A stretch of DNA of 63,963 bases, filler included, from Stramenopiles sp. TOSAG23-3 (lineage: Eukaryota): the NCBI GenBank assembly GCA_900128585.1. It is 4 parts of 4 records of this genome, joined end to end, with 100 filler letters (N's around TTAATTAATTAA, not from the genome) between each part and the next. Parts side by side here need not be neighbours in the genome. Positions count along the whole stretch, not along the records: positions 1 to 20,614 come from LT642372.1; 3 more parts are not named here. One strand, 5' to 3'. Every line of letters starts with the position of its first letter. Within the stretch, counting starts at the first letter, position 1. Shown one piece after another: positions 2,419-16,277 of this stretch. Made by a program: the position numbers and the translations under genes. Below the pieces are notes generated by a model. It saw only the letters and a program-made list of their open reading frames with translations. It ran no database searches and had not been told where the DNA came from.

Positions 2419-4503
2419 TTACCACCCAGTGTACATCTTGCAGTACGGGTTGAGGTTCAACTCCGGCTCGGAGCACATCCCTGACGACTCATCGATATCA
2501 TCCCGCAACTGCTTGTCTCTGTCAACCAAAAGCTTCGCATACCGCTTTTCGGCAATATCTCTTGCCTTTTCCATGGCTTCAAATTCACGTTTATCAAAGT
2601 CCGCCGGATTCTTTCGCCGAAAGTCACGCTGCGCTTGCTTCTTTTCGCCGATTACCTTCTCCCGGACGAACGCAGCCTTCGCTTTGTTCAAGGCGGTTTT
2701 CGCCACCTTCGCGCCTTTCACCTTCTCCCCTCGCTCCTTGATTTCATCGCGCATCTTGCGCTCAATGTCGCGCGATTTGATCTTCACTTCCGCTTTTCCT
2801 TCGCGGGAATCCATGTACTTGATTGCCGCCTCTTCGCCTTTCTCCCCTGCGGTGTTGACGTACTCGTCCTCCTCTTTCGACCTAACCTGCTCCGCGGCCG
2901 ACCGTTGTCTCAACCACTCCAATTCCGCCGCGTCGTGAGAGATTCGTGCCTCCTCCATGATTCGTGCAATATCCTCTGTCACTTGCGCCTTCTTGTCCTT
3001 CTGCTCCCGCTCTGCCCTCATCTTTAGCCGCTGTATCTTCATCCTAACGTTTGAACCCTTCATCATGTTCATTAGCTGGTTGTAGGCTTCTTTGCTGCTG
3101 CTGTCTTGGCGCTTCTCCATCGTTGCAAAGGCAACGTCAATCGGCCGCTTGTGCACGTAATTGTCCTCCATTGCTGTAAAAACCGCACCCTCGGTGTTGT
3201 GCAACAAAAATTTTATTACGGGCATGGAGCCATTCCGAGCTGCCCAGTGCAGGCACGTGTCCCCATGGGCGTCCTTGTAGTGGGTCTTCGCCCCCGCATC
3301 GATCAGGCATTTCAGTACGTTTATGCGATCCTTCAAATTTCCGATATGGGTCCGGGCGGCCTCCATCAACGGGGTCACGCCGTTCATGATGGTATCCCTG
3401 CAGTTTACATACGTCTCCATCGCTTCATAACCGTAAGCCCGCCGCACGTGCTCAGTCAACCACTTGACCAGTTCAACATGGCTGCGCCAGCACGCCATGT
3501 GAAGCACTGTGCTCCCCGTGCCCCCGCGATCGTGGTGCCTCCGAACGTCCCATTTCCGGTGCTGGACGTACTGCTTCACAAACCTCACGTCGCCCTCTGC
3601 AGCGGCTTCGTATATTGTCCGCTTGTCGTTTTTTTCCGCGGTCGCCCGCTCAGACTTTGCAGACCTAGTGTTTCGCTTTGAGTCCTTGCTTTGTTTGGAC
3701 TCTTCCTTCTCTTCGCCCTCGTGCCTTATTCGCTCCTTCTTCCAAAATTCTTTGGAAAACTTTAAACGTTCTAACATTTTTAACTGGGACTGAGGGCGTT
3801 CTTCCTTCTCGACTTCTTTCACTTCGCTGTAATCGTCTGCTGTGCTAGACTTGACTTTTTTCTCTCTTTTCGTCGTCTCTGCCGCGGCCTCCTGCGCTAG
3901 CAAATCATTGTACCTCTTTTGTCTATCGGAGTCTCGCTTCGCCCGCTTGGAAATTTCTTTGGGCGTCGCGTCTTTTATAGCCTGCAAGCGAGCGGCTTCC
4001 TCCGCCTCCGCCGTGGCCTTGGCCTCCAAGCGAGCGGCTTCCTCCGCCTTGGCCTTGGCCTCGGCCTCCTTCGCAGCAATGGCCGCTTTATCTTCAGCGG
4101 AAAGTGCAGGCTCTTCTAACCGTGGAGGAGGGGCGTCCTCACGGGCGGGGGGGGCTTCGTCCTCACGGGGTGGGGGACCTTCGTCCTCGCGTGGGGGGGG
4201 CACGTCGTCCCGGGCTGGAGGGCCTTCGTCCTCACGGGGGGGGGGCGCGTCGTCTCGGGCTGGAGGACCTTCGTCCTCGCGAGGGGGCGGGGCGTCGTCC
4301 CGAGCTGGTGGTACTTCATCCTCACGAGGGGGTGGCGCGTCGTCCCGAGCTGGAGGACCTTCATCCTCGCGGGGAGGTGGTGCGTCGTCCCGAGCTGGAG
4401 GGCCTTCATCCTCGCGGGGAGGTGGCGCGTCGTCCCGAGCTGGAGGGCCTTCATCCTCGCGGGGAGGTGGCGCGTCGTCCCGGGAAGGTGGTGCGTCGGT
4501 CAT
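2419..4503 (-). CDS. Ankyrin-repeat, coiled-coil protein with N-terminal Pro/acidic tandem repeats
   Basis: 694-aa ORF; ankyrin motifs (IYEAAAEGDV, GSTVLHMACW, GVTPLMEAA, GDTCLHWAARNG, KRPIDVA); charged coiled-coil tail. Confidence 0.85.
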   Translation of the reverse strand: MTDAPPSRDDAPPPREDEGPPARDDAPPPREDEGPPARDDAPPPREDEGPPARDDAPPPREDEVPPARDDAPPPREDEGPPARDDAPPPREDEGPPARDDVPPPREDEGPPPREDEAPPAREDAPPPRLEEPALSAEDKAAIAAKEAEAKAKAEEAARLEAKATAEAEEAARLQAIKDATPKEISKRAKRDSDRQKRYNDLLAQEAAAETTKREKKVKSSTADDYSEVKEVEKEERPQSQLKMLERLKFSKEFWKKERIRHEGEEKEESKQSKDSKRNTRSAKSERATAEKNDKRTIYEAAAEGDVRFVKQYVQHRKWDVRRHHDRGGTGSTVLHMACWRSHVELVKWLTEHVRRAYGYEAMETYVNCRDTIMNGVTPLMEAARTHIGNLKDRINVLKCLIDAGAKTHYKDAHGDTCLHWAARNGSMPVIKFLLHNTEGAVFTAMEDNYVHKRPIDVAFATMEKRQDSSSKEAYNQLMNMMKGSNVRMKIQRLKMRAEREQKDKKAQVTEDIARIMEEARISHDAAELEWLRQRSAAEQVRSKEEDEYVNTAGEKGEEAAIKYMDSREGKAEVKIKSRDIERKMRDEIKERGEKVKGAKVAKTALNKAKAAFVREKVIGEKKQAQRDFRRKNPADFDKREFEAMEKARDIAEKRYAKLLVDRDKQLRDDIDESSGMCSEPELNLNPYCKMYTGW
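4122..4497 (-). repeat. Coding minisatellite, 45-bp unit encoding PPARDDAPPPREDEG (about 8 copies)
   Basis: Repeated 'ggaggnccttcntcctcncg...gcgcgtcgtcccgngct' visible in the DNA and in the translation. Confidence 0.9.
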
Positions 4504-5584: not shown

Positions 5585-7930
5585 ATGGCAACGTTTGTAG
5601 GTGAAAACTCGACAGAGCTTCTGAACAAACAGACCGTTGCCTTGGAGGCGACTGGTGCTGTATCAAAGGCTAGTGTCACAGTCAAAGCGGTCGTCTCGCT
5701 GCGTTACAAAGAGGGGTACAAAATTCTCGCCCAAGTAGGGGATTGGAAAAATTCATACAAAGGCACCATTACGCGTGCCAACGCAGACGGCACCTATGCT
5801 GTCCTTTTCGACGACGGTGAAAAGGTTGAGAAAGTTCAACCGTCAGAAATAAAGAGCGTGGTGAACAGTGAAAAGGACATTGTTGTTGCAGAAGGGATCT
5901 CTGCCTCGCGGGCTAAACAAGTAGGAAAATGCACGTCGGAGTACACGGTTTCGTTCGACGACGACAACGCCAAAAAGTCCAAAGGGGGGTCGAGCCAAAT
6001 GACGCTGCAAGAGCGCTTCAACGCTATGAGGCGCAAAAAATTGGCGGAAAGCAAGCATGCAAACTACGTCCGTCGCCGCGGGCAACGGTCTAAGGAAAGG
6101 AAGGATAAGCTTCGGAAAGATTTTATTGCGCAAGTCAAAAAGTACATTGGTGTCCCATATGCTCAAAAGTACCACGAGAAGGGCACCGAAGCGTTCGAAT
6201 CCCCCATATTCTTGGATTGCTGCGCGTTGATCAGGCGGGCGCAAAACGATCTGGCCGAAGACTTCGGGTTTCTTCTTGGCCGGTGGAACCAGAACTACCA
6301 GATGTCCACCCTCCCTGAAGTGGCAAAATTTGAAGACTTGAAAGAGGGGGACCTCATATTTTACGAGGCTGCTTACTACAACCCAGAAAAGGCCAAGAAG
6401 CAACGCTTGGATCTCGTCCACGTGGAGATGTTTTACCCCGGGAAAACGGGAAGGGGCACCATCGGTTCCCGATGGCAGAAAGGCCGAGTGCAAGAATTCG
6501 ACTCTTACGAGTTTACGTCAAAGAACTACCACTCCGTAAAACACCATTTTCGCAGCATAGACAGGTGGTTGAATGGGGAATGCACGCCTTCTCACGACTT
6601 TTGGCCTGTAAATAATATTTCAAACATGGCAACCAACAAATACTCAATGTTCAATGCGGAGAACCTTGCCACTAGCGAATCGGCAGACGGCACAGAGGAT
6701 TCCGTGTCCCTTCAGAACGTCAGAAAGCGCTTCTACGTTGGGCAAGGAAATGGCTGGAAAATGATTGCTGATTCTCTGTTTGCACGAGGGGATTGGATTC
6801 AAGTGCCGTTTGACCAAGGCTTCAGCCAGAACTACCACTTGAAATGGGTAGAACGACGCTCAGAAATCGATTTTGCAACATTGAAGGAAAACAATCAAAT
6901 TGCAAACCACATTTCCAACAACGACGTCATTACGACGAAGAAGGGCCTGATGGAAGTGTTGAAATTTTTACACAATGAAGAATTTATAGACATTTCTTTT
7001 TTTCCAACCTCATACGACTTCACCCTTGCAAGCGATAGATTGGAGTTCTTGTCGCATATCAAGGGAAAAGGAGACTATGTGGCGGGCGTCCTAGACCCAT
7101 GGATCGTGAAACCGATCGCCATGAACCGTGGAAGGGGCATAAAGATTTACAAGAATGCAAAGCCAATCTGCAACGAGCTGCTGGGCGGCAGGGACCTCGA
7201 GAATTGTGGGGGAATTGACAAGTGGAACGGTTCGAACGCATTGAACGGTTTCATCTGCCAAAAGTACTTGACAAATCCTTTGTTGATTGACGGTAAAAAG
7301 TTCGACATTCGAGTGTACTGCTTGGTTTCAGAATGCCATTCCGAACAGTTCATGGCGTTCTACGCCCCAGGTTACTTGCGAATGTCTCTTGAGAAGTATA
7401 CAAACACCGATTTTACCAATCAATTTGTCCATTTGAACAACATTGCGATTCAGAAAAATCACAAAGACTACAAGCAGAGGCGCGAAGAGTCCATCTGGAA
7501 CTTTGATCAACTGAATTCTTACTTAAATGAAAAAGGTATCGGGGAAAAGGACTGGGCTCTAAACGGCTTTCAGCACGAGATGAAACGAATCATGTCCATC
7601 TTGCTCGTTGGGGCCTCTAAATCTTTGGAGCGGAAAAAGGGTACCTTTGATCTGCTCGGGTTTGATTTCATGGTCGATGCCGACCTAAATGTAAAGCTAA
7701 TTGAGGTCAACACGAATCCAGCGCTTCACAAGAATGACGGCAAGTGGTTGCAAACCTTGTTTCCTAAACTGGTCACAGAGACGCTAGATATTGTGCTGAA
7801 ATCAAATGAACTCGACGGAAGTGAAATGTTTGAAGACGCAGAAGAAAGCAGCGGCAAACCCGAGAAGATAGATGGACTCTTCGAGCTGATTTATAATGAG
7901 AAAGGGCGGTTTATGTATCACCAACAATGA
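5585..7930 (+). CDS. Tudor/Agenet-like + NlpC/P60 peptidase + tubulin-tyrosine-ligase-like (TTLL10-like) ATP-grasp fusion protein
   Basis: 781 aa. Tudor-like 'YKGTITRANADGTYAVLFDDGE'. NlpC/P60 'KYIGVPY...LDCCAL...LKEGDLIFY...VHVEM'. TTL motifs 'WIVKP..NRGRGI', 'QKYL.NPLLIDGKKFDIRVY', 'HLNN.AIQK', 'DLLGFDFMVD', 'LIEVNTNPALH'. Confidence 0.88.
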   Translation: MATFVGENSTELLNKQTVALEATGAVSKASVTVKAVVSLRYKEGYKILAQVGDWKNSYKGTITRANADGTYAVLFDDGEKVEKVQPSEIKSVVNSEKDIVVAEGISASRAKQVGKCTSEYTVSFDDDNAKKSKGGSSQMTLQERFNAMRRKKLAESKHANYVRRRGQRSKERKDKLRKDFIAQVKKYIGVPYAQKYHEKGTEAFESPIFLDCCALIRRAQNDLAEDFGFLLGRWNQNYQMSTLPEVAKFEDLKEGDLIFYEAAYYNPEKAKKQRLDLVHVEMFYPGKTGRGTIGSRWQKGRVQEFDSYEFTSKNYHSVKHHFRSIDRWLNGECTPSHDFWPVNNISNMATNKYSMFNAENLATSESADGTEDSVSLQNVRKRFYVGQGNGWKMIADSLFARGDWIQVPFDQGFSQNYHLKWVERRSEIDFATLKENNQIANHISNNDVITTKKGLMEVLKFLHNEEFIDISFFPTSYDFTLASDRLEFLSHIKGKGDYVAGVLDPWIVKPIAMNRGRGIKIYKNAKPICNELLGGRDLENCGGIDKWNGSNALNGFICQKYLTNPLLIDGKKFDIRVYCLVSECHSEQFMAFYAPGYLRMSLEKYTNTDFTNQFVHLNNIAIQKNHKDYKQRREESIWNFDQLNSYLNEKGIGEKDWALNGFQHEMKRIMSILLVGASKSLERKKGTFDLLGFDFMVDADLNVKLIEVNTNPALHKNDGKWLQTLFPKLVTETLDIVLKSNELDGSEMFEDAEESSGKPEKIDGLFELIYNEKGRFMYHQQ

Positions 7931-7960
7931 TGATGCGATGATGCACATCCTTTTAATGAT

Positions 7961-10196: not shown

Positions 10197-11834
10197 TCAC
10201 GCAAGGTTTTCACCACTGTTAAAGGCCTGGTAATCAACGTTGCTGCTGCTGTCCAAGCAATTCAAAACCGAGTCGCGCTCTTTTCCAAAATTGACAGGCA
10301 ATTTCAAAACGTATTTTTCAAGCGGGATTCCGATTGAAAATATTGCAAAGAAGACATATGCATCGTGTCTATGCTTCCCATCTAGCAAAAAAACACTGAT
10401 CAGCGCGCTGATACAAATATACGATAGTCTTACGCCGAAGAACTGCAGTAACTTCCTGTCTGTCCACTCCACTCCATAGCCATGAGCTACAGTGTGATTT
10501 AGATGAAGTATAGACACGGAAATTATTATAAGTGTGGTCCCCGAAATCGAAAGGTTCAAGGTTAGCGATGCAAGCGAGTTATTCTCAGCCATTTGGACTG
10601 CTGCAGAATTCAATCCCAAGCCTATAGACAGGATAAATATGCAAATTACAGACACATCGTGACTGAGTTGATACCTTGTCCTCGATCGCTGCATGGCAAT
10701 CAGAGAAGGCCGGTACGTATTGAAGTACAGCATTTTTACCACAATTGCATACAGAATAGCATCTAATTGCGGAGAGATGTTGTCGGCCGTTTTGTGCGCT
10801 TCTGCGAGATGTTCGTGGTAATCAGAAGCGTTTGCAGCGCAGTAATGCATGATACCAAACTCGCCTGATATGTCTGAAATCGCCGATTCTACCATTACAG
10901 CTATGTTTACAATAATAAACAAACCACACCGCTCGTTGAAGTACTCGATGTGCAAGGGTTCGCACTGGTTCCTGATAGAAGTAGCGAAAGGGATCACCAG
11001 GGGCGGCAATACTAATGGGATTATTGACGTGATCAATGAAATATACTCGCTTAACGGCCGGTCGAGAAAAATACTGGCCAAGTAAGGTGAGGCGCACAAA
11101 AGTAATGAAGACCCCTCCAAAATATTTATCGCCCTGTTCATTTCAGAGGCACTGGCGATGCAAAGTGACACGGCACCTAGCAATGACAACGAACAAGCCG
11201 TGCCAATGAAACAAATTCTACAAGGATCCCCCTCGACACTTGTTGCTCCACACGCAGTTTGTTTGACGCACTCTGGTAACCTAGCAATTCCAATCGTCTG
11301 CGCCAAAATTATACATACAATCAAAATCGTGTCATGAAACCTACCCGTGTGATAACGGTTCCGAAAAAAAGTTAAATGCCGCCAAATAACAGACACTGTG
11401 GCAAATCCTGTAAACAAAGACACCAATCCAGCTTCGATCCTTTCGTTTGCGATGGCAACGCTAGAAGCCTCCCAGTATCTCAAAATTTGTCCCACTAGAA
11501 TTAGGTCGAAAAATATGTCGAACCATTTCACTTTTCTGTGGGAATTTTGTCCACTATTTGCATAAGATTTGTCCTTCAACTGTATCCATGTTTGCTGACT
11601 AGCGGGAAAATTAAAAATACTTTTCTTCAGAGTGCGATGGGTGACTCCTGTATGCGCAGACGATACGGTACTGTTGAATGATTCAAACGATGCACCTGCG
11701 GTTCTCGAATAATAAGTCCCAGAACCATTGGAAGACGCCAAATTGACTTTGTCCTCGGGGTTAATAAGCCCTTGGCGCAACCAACTTTGCCGTTCAGCCT
11801 TGCTGGCCGTGGCGGTATCCACACGCAGTTCCAT
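10197..11834 (-). CDS. LtrA (low-temperature requirement A)-like polytopic membrane protein
   Basis: 'KVKWFDIFFDLILV' and 'HIEYFNERCGLFIIVNIA' match LtrA signature motifs (ELFFDL; H..ER.GLF.II); multiple TM segments. Confidence 0.8.
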   Translation of the reverse strand: MELRVDTATASKAERQSWLRQGLINPEDKVNLASSNGSGTYYSRTAGASFESFNSTVSSAHTGVTHRTLKKSIFNFPASQQTWIQLKDKSYANSGQNSHRKVKWFDIFFDLILVGQILRYWEASSVAIANERIEAGLVSLFTGFATVSVIWRHLTFFRNRYHTGRFHDTILIVCIILAQTIGIARLPECVKQTACGATSVEGDPCRICFIGTACSLSLLGAVSLCIASASEMNRAINILEGSSLLLCASPYLASIFLDRPLSEYISLITSIIPLVLPPLVIPFATSIRNQCEPLHIEYFNERCGLFIIVNIAVMVESAISDISGEFGIMHYCAANASDYHEHLAEAHKTADNISPQLDAILYAIVVKMLYFNTYRPSLIAMQRSRTRYQLSHDVSVICIFILSIGLGLNSAAVQMAENNSLASLTLNLSISGTTLIIISVSILHLNHTVAHGYGVEWTDRKLLQFFGVRLSYICISALISVFLLDGKHRHDAYVFFAIFSIGIPLEKYVLKLPVNFGKERDSVLNCLDSSSNVDYQAFNSGENLA

Positions 11835-12788: not shown

Positions 12789-15700
12789 TTAAATGATGTC
12801 TTTCCGCTTCTTCTTCTTCTGAAAACCTGAGGAAACCTTTGTACTAAGCTGTGCATAATTCAACGCATCAACGCCATCTTCAGCAAAGTTCGAGCGATCG
12901 GTGATTGTAAGGCTTTCTCGTGCCGACGACTTTTTGGGCGGAGTACATTTTGGCGGCGCTGGTTGTTTGTTGTCACCACGCGGGGAAGGCAGAGAGAGGC
13001 GTCGGTCTTGCTTAATCAAATCTTCATTTTTCTGCTTAAAGTGTGACTTAAACTTTGCTTGCTTCAGTTTTTTCTTTACCCAGGACGGCGTGTCACTGAT
13101 AAAGACTGCCAGGCAAATTTTAATTCCAATCATCGCGTGCTCCAGCAGTACCAGGTTGAATGGGTCGAGGTGTATTGCATTTGGGGAGGTAGACACGGTG
13201 TTTGAATCGCTCAAAGTAAAGTATATGAGCGCAAAATTGCAAACAACGGCAAGGAGAGCCAGAAACTCCAAGACCCTAACCCATGACTTTCCTATACTGT
13301 CCACTACTTTCGGCGTAGGCCTTTCGATGTAATTGAGGTACAGGTTCATTTCCCCGTAGCTTTGGACAATATTAACGATCAAACTTATGACTGGAGCCAG
13401 GGGGAAAGCAGCAGAAAAATTAATCAAGTAGCTAAACTGTTGAATCAATTCAGCATAATCGTCCAAAATCCCGTCGTACCGGCCACGAATGTTATTCTCG
13501 CGCAGGTAGGAAATGTTCCTCTTGTGCTCCTTCTCCTTCGTAGTAGGCAACACGGAATCCTCCACGCGATCCTTACTGCTGCCGCACCAGTCCTTCGACT
13601 TGTACTTCATCGCTGGGAGGACAATTTGCTTGACAGTATTGACCACTTGTTTCGAAACCATAATCGTGAACAAAAGCGTGTACAGCTTTATTCTGTTGCG
13701 TTGCACGAACGCGGTGTGAAACAAAGCAACGTTCCCGTTGATCAATTGGAACAGGAAAACTTTTACGGTGAGGGACTGCTGGAACGATGCGTCCGTTCGG
13801 TGGTTCTCAAAATCACAAACCTGTCGCGCCAAAATAGAATACGCCCTGTTCAATATAATAATAGAAAGACCGTTCAGTATGCCCCCAATCATGCTTATGT
13901 ACACCGGCATACCTTTGGACATTTCGTTCCAGCTTTGCAGCACAAGAAAGCCGGCTATGATGCCAGCTCCCAAGACCAACAAAATAGGGATTTGGAGGGA
14001 TGTTCTCATCCAACGCTTGGACGATGGAAAATATTTTACTGTATCGCCACTTATGGGATCTACCCTTTCGTTCCCAAAAAAACCTTTTCGTACGCGGTTC
14101 CCTTCAAGATCTGCTCCTGGCGAAACAATTCCATCATTCAGCCCCCACACGGTCTTTATTTCGCTAGATTTCCTTTTCCAATATTCGACGAAAAGTGTGG
14201 CCCAAATACTCAAGTACACGGAAAAGTAAATAGCATTCGTAGCGTCAAAAATACCAGCGTTCAAATCTCCTGCATCCACAATTGAATACAACTGTATGGC
14301 CCCGACAACCATCCCGGGCAACGCGATGAAAATCAAGAAGAGATTGTAGCAGTACAAGAAGGAGAAGTAGAACCCCAACTCTTCCCCAAAGTAGTACGTG
14401 ATTGTAGTGAACAGAGAGAACTGATTGTGCTGATTTTCGAAGAAGCATTCGTGGAGGGTGGCCCACTTCGGCGTCCATTTGAACCACATTTTCTTGAGAG
14501 TTTTAATCTCTTTGCTGTTGTGCAGCACTGTGACGCGAGTGAGGATGGTAAAATAGGACTCAATGTTTACGCCTTTGTCGCAAATATGGTTCAACAAAAT
14601 CTTTATTTTGTCCCGCGAATTCCACGGCTGGAACATTCTGAGAAGATCCTTGCGAAACGGGACACGGTCGTCCGAAAATATATACTCACAGTGGTACTCC
14701 ATCTTTTCTGCCCATTCGTCAAACTTTTCTGATCCACGCAGGACGCCAACTTTCATGATAACCTTTGTTCCATCATCATTTGCATATATCTGCCTGCACG
14801 ATATGCCATGCGCCAGCAAAATGTTTTCTAACTTTACCTTTGTGTTTTCTTTCCAGACGCTCTTAACAGCGCTCTTTTTACTGCTGCAGCAGCTGAAGAA
14901 CGGTTTGTCCTCCGCACTCAGATCGTACTCAAACGTCAAAAAATTATCATAATTGCCTTTCTTAATACTGCCTCGATTCTGATAATCTTGAATAGTAACA
15001 CCGTACTTGTTGGCGCGGATAGACTTTTCGTATTCCATCTTTGCGAGTCCTATCGACTCTAAGCATTTTTCTATTGCTTTTATTGTTTTCTTCGTACCTC
15101 CAAATCTTTCGTCGAAGTTCTCCATCACATAAGCAATATGAAGCGGCGTGTTGCCCTCAAAGTCTCGCTTCATCATGTTACTCCAAATTTTCTTCTTACT
15201 TTTATCGTCGTCTTTTTTGAAAAACTCGTCAAAAAACTCTTCTTTGAACGCCTCGTTTCTTCCCATCGTTGCTGCGGCATGAAACGCATTCTGCTGTCGC
15301 ATTACCGCATGCTTCCACTTGTACAGGGAAGAAATATCAATTTTCCTCGACTGGGCATACGTCAGCGCCAGCTGCACCACGTCAAACTTACCAAAGAATG
15401 TTGCCCAGAACACCAACTTTTTCAAATGTTCTAATTTGAAGATCTTGCCTGCTTTCTTGCCTGAACTTTCGTGGCTTTCCATCAGGGATTTAGTGCATTC
15501 AAGGGTCTGAATAGCAATATTCTCGTAGTCCTCGACGGAGGCGAAGTAGTACGACTTGGGCAGCACCTCCCGGGAGTACAGCAAGGTGTCTGCGTCGATG
15601 AACTTATCAGTTGTATTTTTGCGAAATTCTAGTTCCAGCATCTTTCGAAAGTACAGCGAACCGACGACATCAAGAACTACGTGTCCCAGAGAGTTATCTT

Positions 15701-16277
15701 TCCATAATAATCGCGCAAATCCGTCACTATATTTTTCTTTTCTTATTCTATCCAAAGCGGTATCTTTGTTTTTATCTTCCCGCCCCACTTTAACCATCTG
15801 CTCAAACGCCGTCCAAGTGCCGTGCGTCGCAAGCCAGTGAAGGCACGACGTTTTGGAGCTCTTGTTATAACCAAACTGGTCTATCGAGCCCCTGCAGTCC
15901 TTCAGTAGCTTTTCAATGCACTTTTTCTGGTTCTCTTCTCCTGATTTGTTTTTTGCCCGGTCTATGCAAGCTAGAATAATTGGTGTGTTGCCGTAGTAGT
16001 CACGCCCACGGGCCAGTTTCTTGCGCCCATCCTCGGAATGTTTTTGGGCTATTTTGTCCAATAGGACAGTATTGAATTGCCTGGCCGCTACGTGATACAA
16101 GTTTCGCTGTTCATTTGTGTGAAACGAACTCAGTAACTCCGATGCGTTGACATTGTCGACAAAAGAAGTCATCTGCGTTGGAGTGAAACTGGATGAAAAC
16201 ATTTTCGCGCTTGTCCTTTTTCGTTTGGGGAGATCGCTTTGCTCATCCTTCTTAGGAGCTACTTTTCCACCACCCAT
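12789..16277 (-). CDS. Anoctamin/TMEM16 channel-scramblase with N-terminal ankyrin repeats
   Basis: 1162 aa. Ankyrins 'GNTPIILAC', 'SCLHWLA', 'NAFHAAA', 'GNTPLHIA'. Anoctamin motifs 'YYFGEELGFYFSFL', 'FVEYWKRK', 'ENHRT', 'KVFLFQLIN', 'DDYAELIQQF', 'FSAAFPLAP', 'EH', 'DTPSWV'. Confidence 0.93.
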   Translation of the reverse strand: MGGGKVAPKKDEQSDLPKRKRTSAKMFSSSFTPTQMTSFVDNVNASELLSSFHTNEQRNLYHVAARQFNTVLLDKIAQKHSEDGRKKLARGRDYYGNTPIILACIDRAKNKSGEENQKKCIEKLLKDCRGSIDQFGYNKSSKTSCLHWLATHGTWTAFEQMVKVGREDKNKDTALDRIRKEKYSDGFARLLWKDNSLGHVVLDVVGSLYFRKMLELEFRKNTTDKFIDADTLLYSREVLPKSYYFASVEDYENIAIQTLECTKSLMESHESSGKKAGKIFKLEHLKKLVFWATFFGKFDVVQLALTYAQSRKIDISSLYKWKHAVMRQQNAFHAAATMGRNEAFKEEFFDEFFKKDDDKSKKKIWSNMMKRDFEGNTPLHIAYVMENFDERFGGTKKTIKAIEKCLESIGLAKMEYEKSIRANKYGVTIQDYQNRGSIKKGNYDNFLTFEYDLSAEDKPFFSCCSSKKSAVKSVWKENTKVKLENILLAHGISCRQIYANDDGTKVIMKVGVLRGSEKFDEWAEKMEYHCEYIFSDDRVPFRKDLLRMFQPWNSRDKIKILLNHICDKGVNIESYFTILTRVTVLHNSKEIKTLKKMWFKWTPKWATLHECFFENQHNQFSLFTTITYYFGEELGFYFSFLYCYNLFLIFIALPGMVVGAIQLYSIVDAGDLNAGIFDATNAIYFSVYLSIWATLFVEYWKRKSSEIKTVWGLNDGIVSPGADLEGNRVRKGFFGNERVDPISGDTVKYFPSSKRWMRTSLQIPILLVLGAGIIAGFLVLQSWNEMSKGMPVYISMIGGILNGLSIIILNRAYSILARQVCDFENHRTDASFQQSLTVKVFLFQLINGNVALFHTAFVQRNRIKLYTLLFTIMVSKQVVNTVKQIVLPAMKYKSKDWCGSSKDRVEDSVLPTTKEKEHKRNISYLRENNIRGRYDGILDDYAELIQQFSYLINFSAAFPLAPVISLIVNIVQSYGEMNLYLNYIERPTPKVVDSIGKSWVRVLEFLALLAVVCNFALIYFTLSDSNTVSTSPNAIHLDPFNLVLLEHAMIGIKICLAVFISDTPSWVKKKLKQAKFKSHFKQKNEDLIKQDRRLSLPSPRGDNKQPAPPKCTPPKKSSARESLTITDRSNFAEDGVDALNYAQLSTKVSSGFQKKKKRKDII

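Follow-up and report, generated by a model that had tools for sequence, protein, structure and literature searches.

TTLL enzymes join glycine or glutamate to the γ-carboxyl group of glutamates in tubulin tails and then lengthen the chains so begun, and NlpC/P60 (P60-type) enzymes hydrolyse γ-glutamyl amide bonds, γ-D-glutamyl-diamino acid bonds among them, such that the bonds made by the one family and those cut by the other both involve the γ-carboxyl of glutamate. Papain-like vasohibins also act on these tails. Here we describe a gene in a 63,963-nucleotide stretch of DNA from the marine protist Stramenopiles sp. TOSAG23-3 (GCA_900128585.1; the whole stretch is referred to as the window), the product of which, on the strength of its sequence and of structural models, is very probably a ligase of the TTLL10 clade that carries an NlpC/P60-fold domain. 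The original prediction for this gene had been that a Tudor-like module, an NlpC/P60 peptidase and a TTLL10-like ligase were fused as candidate reader, eraser and writer of tubulin side chains, and its chemical logic, γ-glutamyl bonds being cut by NlpC/P60 enzymes and made by TTLLs, holds on what is generally known of this chemistry.

In the accessible parts of the recent literature glycylation stands as the sole major modification of tubulin tails without a known eraser, and tubulin deglycylases are still called unidentified there (PMC11244163, 2024; PMC12340829, 2025; PMC13308552, 2026), in agreement with the starting premise that no broadly conserved one is established. Among known erasers, the vasohibin-SVBP detyrosinases and the CCP (M14) deglutamylases are alike in the kind of activity proposed here, in which amino acids are removed from tubulin tails, but the vasohibins belong to the transglutaminase-like cluster, the CCPs are metallo-carboxypeptidases, and neither is fused to its own writer. 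The vasohibins are placed with the cysteine enzymes of the papain-like superfamily in the available text of a 2023 classification of that superfamily, which in that text draws no link to TTL (PMC10318531). Bacterial peptide-tagging systems likewise combine an ATP-grasp ligase with a papain-like (transglutaminase-like, TGL) thiol peptidase as writer and predicted eraser; there, however, the two are separate genes of an operon and the peptidase is TGL-type, whereas the window's peptidase is NlpC/P60-type and covalently joined to a eukaryotic TTLL. Ciliary TGL peptidases have been proposed as possible removers of tubulin modifications by Zhang and Aravind (2012; PMC3495828), a paper in the accessible portion of which NlpC/P60 appears only among the references.

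The NlpC/P60 (MEROPS C40) D,L-endopeptidases, such as MepS/Spr, RipA/RipB, LytE and YkfC / dipeptidyl-peptidase VI, have the fold and the Cys-then-His order in common with the window's domain, as well as the motifs GxPY, DC(S/C), (R)xxQ, GDL and HV(G/E)I. In contrast to these enzymes, the domain described here is predicted to be cytosolic, is eukaryotic, is fused to a TTLL and has a basic hairpin in front of it, and it shows a Cys-Cys doublet, an invariant Glu at the second residue past the His, and Gly or Ala at the presumed site of the third catalytic residue; peptidoglycan is an implausible substrate for it. The vertebrate TTLL10 polyglycylase is the closest counterpart of the ligase, the window's ligase falling in the same clade as animal TTLL10-like proteins and apart from TTLL3/8, with its ATP-grasp motifs intact. 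It differs in that the Xenopus enzyme, as residues 105-570 and as far as the accessible account of it goes, has no NlpC/P60 domain, whereas such a module precedes the ligase in the window and in cnidarian, echinoderm, mollusc and protist orthologues.

The gene (5585..7930, + strand) is a single uninterrupted open reading frame (ORF), beginning with ATG and unbroken under translation table 11, which confirms the 781-amino acid product originally read from it. An identical 781-amino acid protein (P0002) is already present in the public protein collection, and no signal peptide is evident in it by eye. By family profile and structural model, the middle domain of this protein has an NlpC/P60-type papain-like α+β fold. 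Its core carries the motifs GVPY, LDCC, RWNQ, GDLIFY, VHVEMF and IGSR, and a profile built from 47 sequences of the family reached the solved NlpC/P60 enzymes 3npf (E 1.1e-4), 4fdy (E 1.6e-4) and 3pvq (E 5.2e-4), placing the D-C-C of the family on D-C-S and its H-V-E-I-F on H-V-G-I-Y. The best solved relatives by sequence had been deposited as ‘dipeptidyl-peptidase VI’ and NlpC/P60, and some homologues have a precomputed match to PF00877. An AlphaFold2 (AF2) model of residues 136-362, made from the family alignment, had a predicted local distance difference test score (pLDDT) of 91.3 and a predicted template modelling score (pTM) of 0.82, and when this was compared with the PDB using Foldseek there were 36 matches at E ≤0.001, the best being 3pbi (E 7.7e-6), with template modelling (TM, target) scores of up to 0.70. 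Among the PDB matches listed, which include RipB, MepS/Spr, Acd24020, LytE, SagA and Trichomonas NlpC proteins, all bear NlpC/P60-type or cell-wall endopeptidase names except 4h4j, described as an N-acetylmuramoyl-L-alanine amidase. Profile, model and Foldseek search thus together uphold the NlpC/P60 domain, with an intact D211-C212 and His279, that had been recognised by eye.

The ligase half was equally clear. Its match to the TTL profile PF03133 (Pfam; E 6.3e-49, 167.2 bits against a cut-off of 20.1, residues 434-738) bears out the complete TTL ATP-grasp domain claimed at the outset. By sequence its closest solved relatives were 5vlq (E 1.4e-20), which we take to be the TTLL3 glycylase, and then TTL, and when the full-length AF2 model (pLDDT 75, pTM 0.55) was submitted to Foldseek the matches were TTLL6 and TTL (E ~1e-19 to 1e-20, TM (target) 0.68-0.83). 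Residues K509, Q559, Y561, D574, R576, D694, E707 and N709, which presumably have nucleotide- and Mg-binding roles, are invariant in an alignment of 22 homologues (alignment A1). Prediction of the ligase domain and the peptidase module as two chains gave a score of 0.03 against a mark of 0.34, which is uninformative on docking either way.

When the ligase domain was searched alone and the named matches were ranked, TTLL10-like proteins came first (214 bits in Hydractinia and 195 in Asterias), ahead of TTLL3/8 (141 bits) and TTLL5 (≤86 bits). A ligase-domain tree (IQ-TREE quick mode; 43 rows and 355 columns, each column filled in ≥50% of the rows, with TTLL5/6 as the outgroup) placed 30/30 rows from peptidase-bearing proteins in one clade, with a Shimodaira-Hasegawa-like approximate likelihood ratio test (SH-aLRT) value of 99, and this clade contains the animal TTLL10-like rows from Hydractinia and Asterias, TTLL3/8 forming a separate clade (SH-aLRT 98). 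Because of the ranking and of this tree, in which the window's ligase lies within the peptidase-bearing clade and TTLL3/8 outside it, we assign the gene product to the TTLL10, or polyglycine-elongating, clade; by its ligase sequence it is a member, and the elongation of glycine chains is predicted from that membership. The TTLL10-like character proposed originally is therefore borne out by both approaches.

Transcripts were considered as evidence that the two enzymes are parts of one gene. Contigs from RNA libraries (oligo-dT, polyA and other metatranscriptome libraries) are colinear with the gene, within 5664-7951, with zero joints. The oligo-dT library covers 5664-7918 piecewise, and here one contig (6595-6840) runs across the linker between peptidase and ligase without a joint. 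A polyA library contig covers 6886-7571 of the gene, and a further RNA library covers 6397-6565 and 7187-7951; the uncovered parts of the gene in these runs (X6, X7 and X15) carry no meaning. A 7776-nt contig spanning all of the gene (run X1) was left out as transcript evidence since it may stem from carried-over DNA or be the source of the window itself. In relatives, complete transcript ORFs hold both the peptidase and the ligase domain.

The same architecture was looked for elsewhere and proved common. A search with the whole protein returned many proteins of 600-850 amino acids, with 77-86% query coverage and 35-45% identity, and fused forms were found in Triparma, Ectocarpus, Tetrahymena, Stygiella (a jakobid), Yihiella (a dinoflagellate) and three chrysophytes, several of them as complete transcript ORFs. 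Proteins of Hydractinia, Asterias and Dreissena share the N-terminal peptidase domain at 47-52% identity to that of the window, whereas their ligase domains are only ~35% identical to the window's. In the gene model of the Hydractinia TTLL10-like protein (P0025), a small part of the C-terminal end of the NlpC/P60-like module recurs farther downstream, at residues 341-377; this repeat may be an artefact of annotation or assembly. The nearest Atlas cluster of the peptidase module is composed of eukaryotes only, the commonest phylum being Chordata. A HMMER search with the peptidase module gave 653 cluster representatives at E ≤1e-3, of which 154 were at E ≤1e-30, and the 150 matches listed were 118-2183 amino acids in length.

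Sorted by ligase content, 340 family members comprised 117 with ≥60% of the TTL domain, 28 with a partial TTL domain and 195 with none, and wherever any ligase was present the peptidase was N-terminal to it (145/145). The last class contains the stand-alone NlpC/P60 orthologues that had been sought, although some may be truncated models. Those named include, among animals and their relatives, Gopherus (a tortoise; 281 amino acids), amphioxus (465-478 amino acids), Saccoglossus, Salpingoeca, a sponge, a flatworm and a rotifer, and, among protists and algae, Stentor, Cafeteria, Carpediemonas, Andalucia, Amoebophrya, Chlamydomonas sp. UWO241 and Fabomonas (found as a complete transcript ORF). To our knowledge all taxa named among the matches listed are ciliated at some stage of life. 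A tree of the peptidase module mixes solo and fused forms, which sort by taxon: animals fall together, Tetrahymena with Stentor and Stygiella with Andalucia, and the sequences of Dreissena (fused) and Mya (solo) are near-identical. Since the two forms interleave in this way, the solo proteins would be orthologues that arose by fission, or in some cases truncated models, rather than an old separate paralogue. The fusion of peptidase and ligase is thus a widespread, and probably ancestral, architecture of the TTLL10 clade, typical of most of its non-vertebrate members, and the original view of it as noteworthy needs adjusting: the architecture is real but not special to this gene, being shared by animal, ciliate, jakobid, dinoflagellate and ochrophyte proteins.

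Among 185,579 prokaryote genomes, searched with two short patterns that cannot prove absence, no bona fide prokaryotic member was found; there were 21 matches, of which one was a relative. This relative (L001:4943-7003) lies in a 1.72-Mb contig that is catalogued as an uncultured Desulfobacterium metagenome-assembled genome, and it was rejected as a bacterial member because it can be read only under the ciliate code: the 12.5-kb locus contains only 4 ORFs of ≥80 amino acids under table 11 and reads open solely when TAA and TAG are taken as Gln. This appears to be ciliate DNA, although the record lists it as bacterial.

Conservation is extreme in the predicted active-site motifs of the peptidase. 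In the full-length model C212 opens a helix (212-221) and H279 lies on a strand (277-283), in the non-permuted Cys-then-His order. Across the 340 family members, with denominators giving the members that cover the column in question, C212 is kept in 327/327, H279 in 329/329 and E281 in 329/329, and the same is true of D211 (326/326), Q236 (330/330), G255-D256 (330/330), R296 (323/323) and W328 (319/319), with C213 (325/327) and N235 (328/330) close behind; overall identity of the family to the window protein is 34-49%. The peptidase core (residues 187-335) is better conserved than the ligase in 105/105 fused homologues (those with adequate alignments, out of 115 fused), with a median identity of 53% vs 34%. 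Such a pattern is expected of a working active site and not of a relic. The D211-C212-C213 codons occupy nt 6215-6223, and the Cys213 that follows the predicted nucleophile, nearly invariant as noted, takes the place of a Ser in canonical NlpC/P60 enzymes; another Cys, C333, is conserved in 273/318 family members. A redox switch and a metal site are possibilities for Cys213 and C333.

Taken together with the bond chemistry set out above, these results suggest a mechanism in which the peptidase would be catalytically active through Cys212 and His279, probably with Glu281 replacing the usual third residue, and would hydrolyse amide bonds to the γ-carboxyl of glutamate on acidic substrates that it shares with the ligase. 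These substrates would be tubulin C-terminal tails and possibly other acidic proteins. By removing branch-point residues or by trimming side chains of glycine (or glutamate), the peptidase would allow one polypeptide both to extend side chains and to cut them back, thereby setting their length or occupancy, and the basic hairpin would tether the peptidase module to the acidic tail or to the lattice. That the domain is an active cysteine isopeptidase acting on TTLL-made side chains is, on sequence and models, a tentative proposal to which we give slightly less than an even chance. That it removes glycine specifically, as a deglycylase, is plausible, though we place this on the unlikely side. 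In its boldest form, which sequence comparison makes conceivable but which we hold to be unlikely, the ancestral TTLL10 module, together with the peptidase-only forms derived from it in animals, green algae, alveolates and excavates, would be the missing tubulin deglycylase, already joined to its writer in the last eukaryotic common ancestor and later dropped by mammalian TTLL10; if the module was indeed lost from mammals, work centred on mammals would have missed the deglycylase for that reason.

Several observations weigh against an eraser within an ancestral TTLL10. The single-sequence score for PF00877 is under the Pfam threshold (E 0.059, 13.8 bits against a cut-off of 23). At G294, a position set by motif spacing and which we take to be the canonical NlpC/P60 site of the third catalytic residue, the column holds G in 300, A in 22 and S in 1 of 323 members; the canonical residue thus appears to have been replaced, and the invariant E281, two residues past the His, is a possible stand-in judging by the alignment. 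The labels ‘TTLL10-like’ are automatic NCBI names, and the ligase tree holds no experimentally characterised vertebrate TTLL10. Many peptidase-only members stem from 1-3 kb contigs or may be truncated gene models, and because of this and of the interleaving of solo and fused forms the Rosetta-stone argument is weaker than the raw counts, and the peptidase-only members count for little as a sign of an independent gene. The basic hairpin would be equally suited to nucleic acid or other acidic partners. Lastly, as described in the accessible parts of one report, the Xenopus TTLL10 polyglycylase construct (residues 105-570) is without the peptidase module, and polyglycine length can be limited by product inhibition with TTLL10 (PMC12340829); since the vertebrate enzyme works without the module, and given product inhibition, TTLL10 does not need an eraser in order to function.

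Other explanations of the domain were weighed against an isopeptidase acting on TTLL-made side chains. It could be an active cysteine enzyme of other chemistry or with another target, that is, an acyl- or peptidyl-transferase (LRAT-like), a vasohibin-like trimmer of the tubulin C-terminus, or an isopeptidase whose acidic substrate is something else, for instance a chromatin protein or a histone chaperone. The NlpC/P60 superfamily does include transferases, TTLL10 reportedly glycylates NAP1, and the Tudor-like module and the basic hairpin would fit chromatin or other acidic partners. The Cys-then-His order and the motifs, however, are those of the hydrolytic P60 type and not of the permuted LRAT/YaeF type, and fusion to a TTLL10 ligase in 145/340 members points to the ligase's own substrates, so that we regard this explanation as unlikely.

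Alternatively, the NlpC/P60-like domain might be a non-hydrolytic pseudo-peptidase serving recognition or as a scaffold, the conserved residues of which bind branched or acidic tails, or some other partner, and position the ligase. This would accord with the apparent replacement by Gly/Ala of the usual third catalytic residue and with the presence, among the fold matches, of domains described as non-catalytic (RipD, 4jxb and 4lj1). RipD, however, is reported to lack the catalytic residues, which counts against the parallel, whilst here neither Cys212 and His279 nor the motifs beside them vary in ~330 sequences of roughly 45% overall identity, which would be unusual for inactivated enzymes. As for recognition itself, TTLL10 needs to recognise monoglycylated tails, but according to the same accessible text Xenopus TTLL10 without the domain already recognises monoglycylated microtubules (PMC12340829), and we consider a pseudo-peptidase distinctly improbable.

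An ordinary peptidoglycan hydrolase of bacterial origin, directed at the walls of prey or symbionts and joined to the TTLL by chance or through a gene-model artefact, is very hard to sustain: the names of all but one of the structural relatives listed (cell-wall endopeptidase or NlpC/P60) and the JGI pipeline label ‘cell wall-associated NlpC family hydrolase’ on some members speak for it, but there is no signal peptide evident by eye and no wall-binding domain in the Pfam scan, complete transcripts from distantly related eukaryotes, and animal proteins too, show the same fusion, contigs of the RNA libraries run through the linker colinear with the gene, the family is far from the bacterial enzymes (profile E only 1e-4), and the sole relative among the prokaryote genomes is ciliate-coded DNA.

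With respect to priority, the architecture is already in databases, since automatic names flag NlpC/P60 in some members, the Triparma fused protein being called ‘NlpC/P60 domain-containing protein’ in UniRef. A pairing of NlpC with TTLL, tubulin tyrosine ligase or glycylation was not found in the searchable open literature, an earlier mention being possible in Anantharaman and Aravind (2003), Iyer et al. (2009) or the supplements of TTLL phylogenies (Janke 2005; Wloga 2008-2009). Among the titles listed, none on TTLL10 and peptidases concerns the fused architecture, none on deglycylation from 2021 onwards reports a tubulin deglycylase, and a search of the searchable open literature for TTLL14/TTLL15 found nothing. 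A paper on SIRT3 was set aside as dealing with lysine glycylation, a different modification. The idea of a candidate eraser is plausible and, as far as the searchable literature shows, unpublished.

A predicted peptidase of fitting bond chemistry inside a polyglycylase clade, present from protists to invertebrates, offers a concrete candidate for experiment. Even if it is no deglycylase, an ancestral TTLL10 that was a two-enzyme protein would be new to the searchable tubulin-code literature, as would the shedding or splitting-off of one half of TTLL10 in vertebrates, and two-enzyme ancestry followed by vertebrate loss would alter how results from vertebrate TTLL10 are extrapolated to ciliates, algae and the sperm and cilia of invertebrates.

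The N-terminal Tudor-like module was found in 2/22 aligned homologues, the window protein and its nearest relative (P0003), and on this alignment is a lineage-specific N-terminal addition. Its five Tudor-type Pfam families all score below their cut-offs, the best being Tudor_3 (E 3.1e-4, 21.0 bits vs 25.8), with SGF29_Tudor at E 1.8e-3. The full-length AF2 model shows five strands (47-53, 56-65, 71-75, 80-84 and 89-94) at moderate confidence (pLDDT ~57-78), and pairwise comparison finds it similar (E 6e-11) to the tandem modules of P0086, a protein with precomputed Tudor-type Pfam matches. The module as originally described is thus weakly favoured by a modelled five-strand barrel and the likeness to P0086, though not by any Pfam match above cut-off, and the ‘reader’ role once attached to it found no support beyond this weak similarity. 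The strongly basic hairpin is conserved and of wider occurrence: across 256 homologues its median charge is +8 and it is ≥+5 in 93%, and it is also found in peptidase-only homologues. Positions of these and the other features are collected in Table 1.

Table 1. Location in the window of the TTLL10-clade gene and its predicted parts, with the basis for each.
Feature	Position	Strand	Basis
Whole gene: TTLL10-clade ligase with N-terminal Tudor-like module and NlpC/P60-like domain	5585..7930	+	Single-exon ORF, 781 amino acids (coordinates include stop)
Tudor-like β-barrel, residues 45-95	5717..5869	+	Weak Pfam matches, model strands, likeness to P0086
Basic helical hairpin ahead of peptidase core, residues 141-186, net charge +13	6005..6142	+	Helices 141-163 and 170-186 in models
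NlpC/P60-like papain-fold core, residues 187-335	6143..6589	+	Family profile, fold, motif invariance
Cys212 codon, predicted nucleophile	6218..6220	+	Aligned to catalytic-motif Cys of 3npf, 4fdy and 3pvq
His279-Val280-Glu281 codons, predicted catalytic His and invariant Glu (candidate third residue)	6419..6427	+	His aligned to HVGIY-motif His of solved enzymes
Acidic disordered linker between peptidase and ligase, residues 340-378	6602..6718	+	pLDDT <50; variable and gappy in alignment A1
TTL / ATP-grasp ligase domain, residues 379-745 (Pfam envelope 434-738)	6719..7819	+	Pfam, solved relatives, Foldseek, invariant residues

The window is a segment of eukaryotic nuclear DNA with many genes and few introns, and ORFs neighbouring the gene encode an anoctamin, ankyrin-repeat proteins, a CRAL-TRIO protein, a C1 peptidase of the bleomycin-hydrolase type and a kinase. 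At 2419-4503 (- strand) lies a 694-amino acid ankyrin-repeat ORF, at the start of which is a tandem array (4171-4482) of a 45-nt unit in 6.9 copies with 89% matches, encoding repeats of the DDAPPPREDEGPPAR type. A 1162-amino acid ORF at 12789-16277 (- strand) joins N-terminal ankyrin repeats to an anoctamin (calcium-activated channel/scramblase) domain, and the product of a 545-amino acid ORF at 10197-11834 (- strand) matches the bacterial LtrA (low-temperature-requirement A) family (E 6.8e-16).

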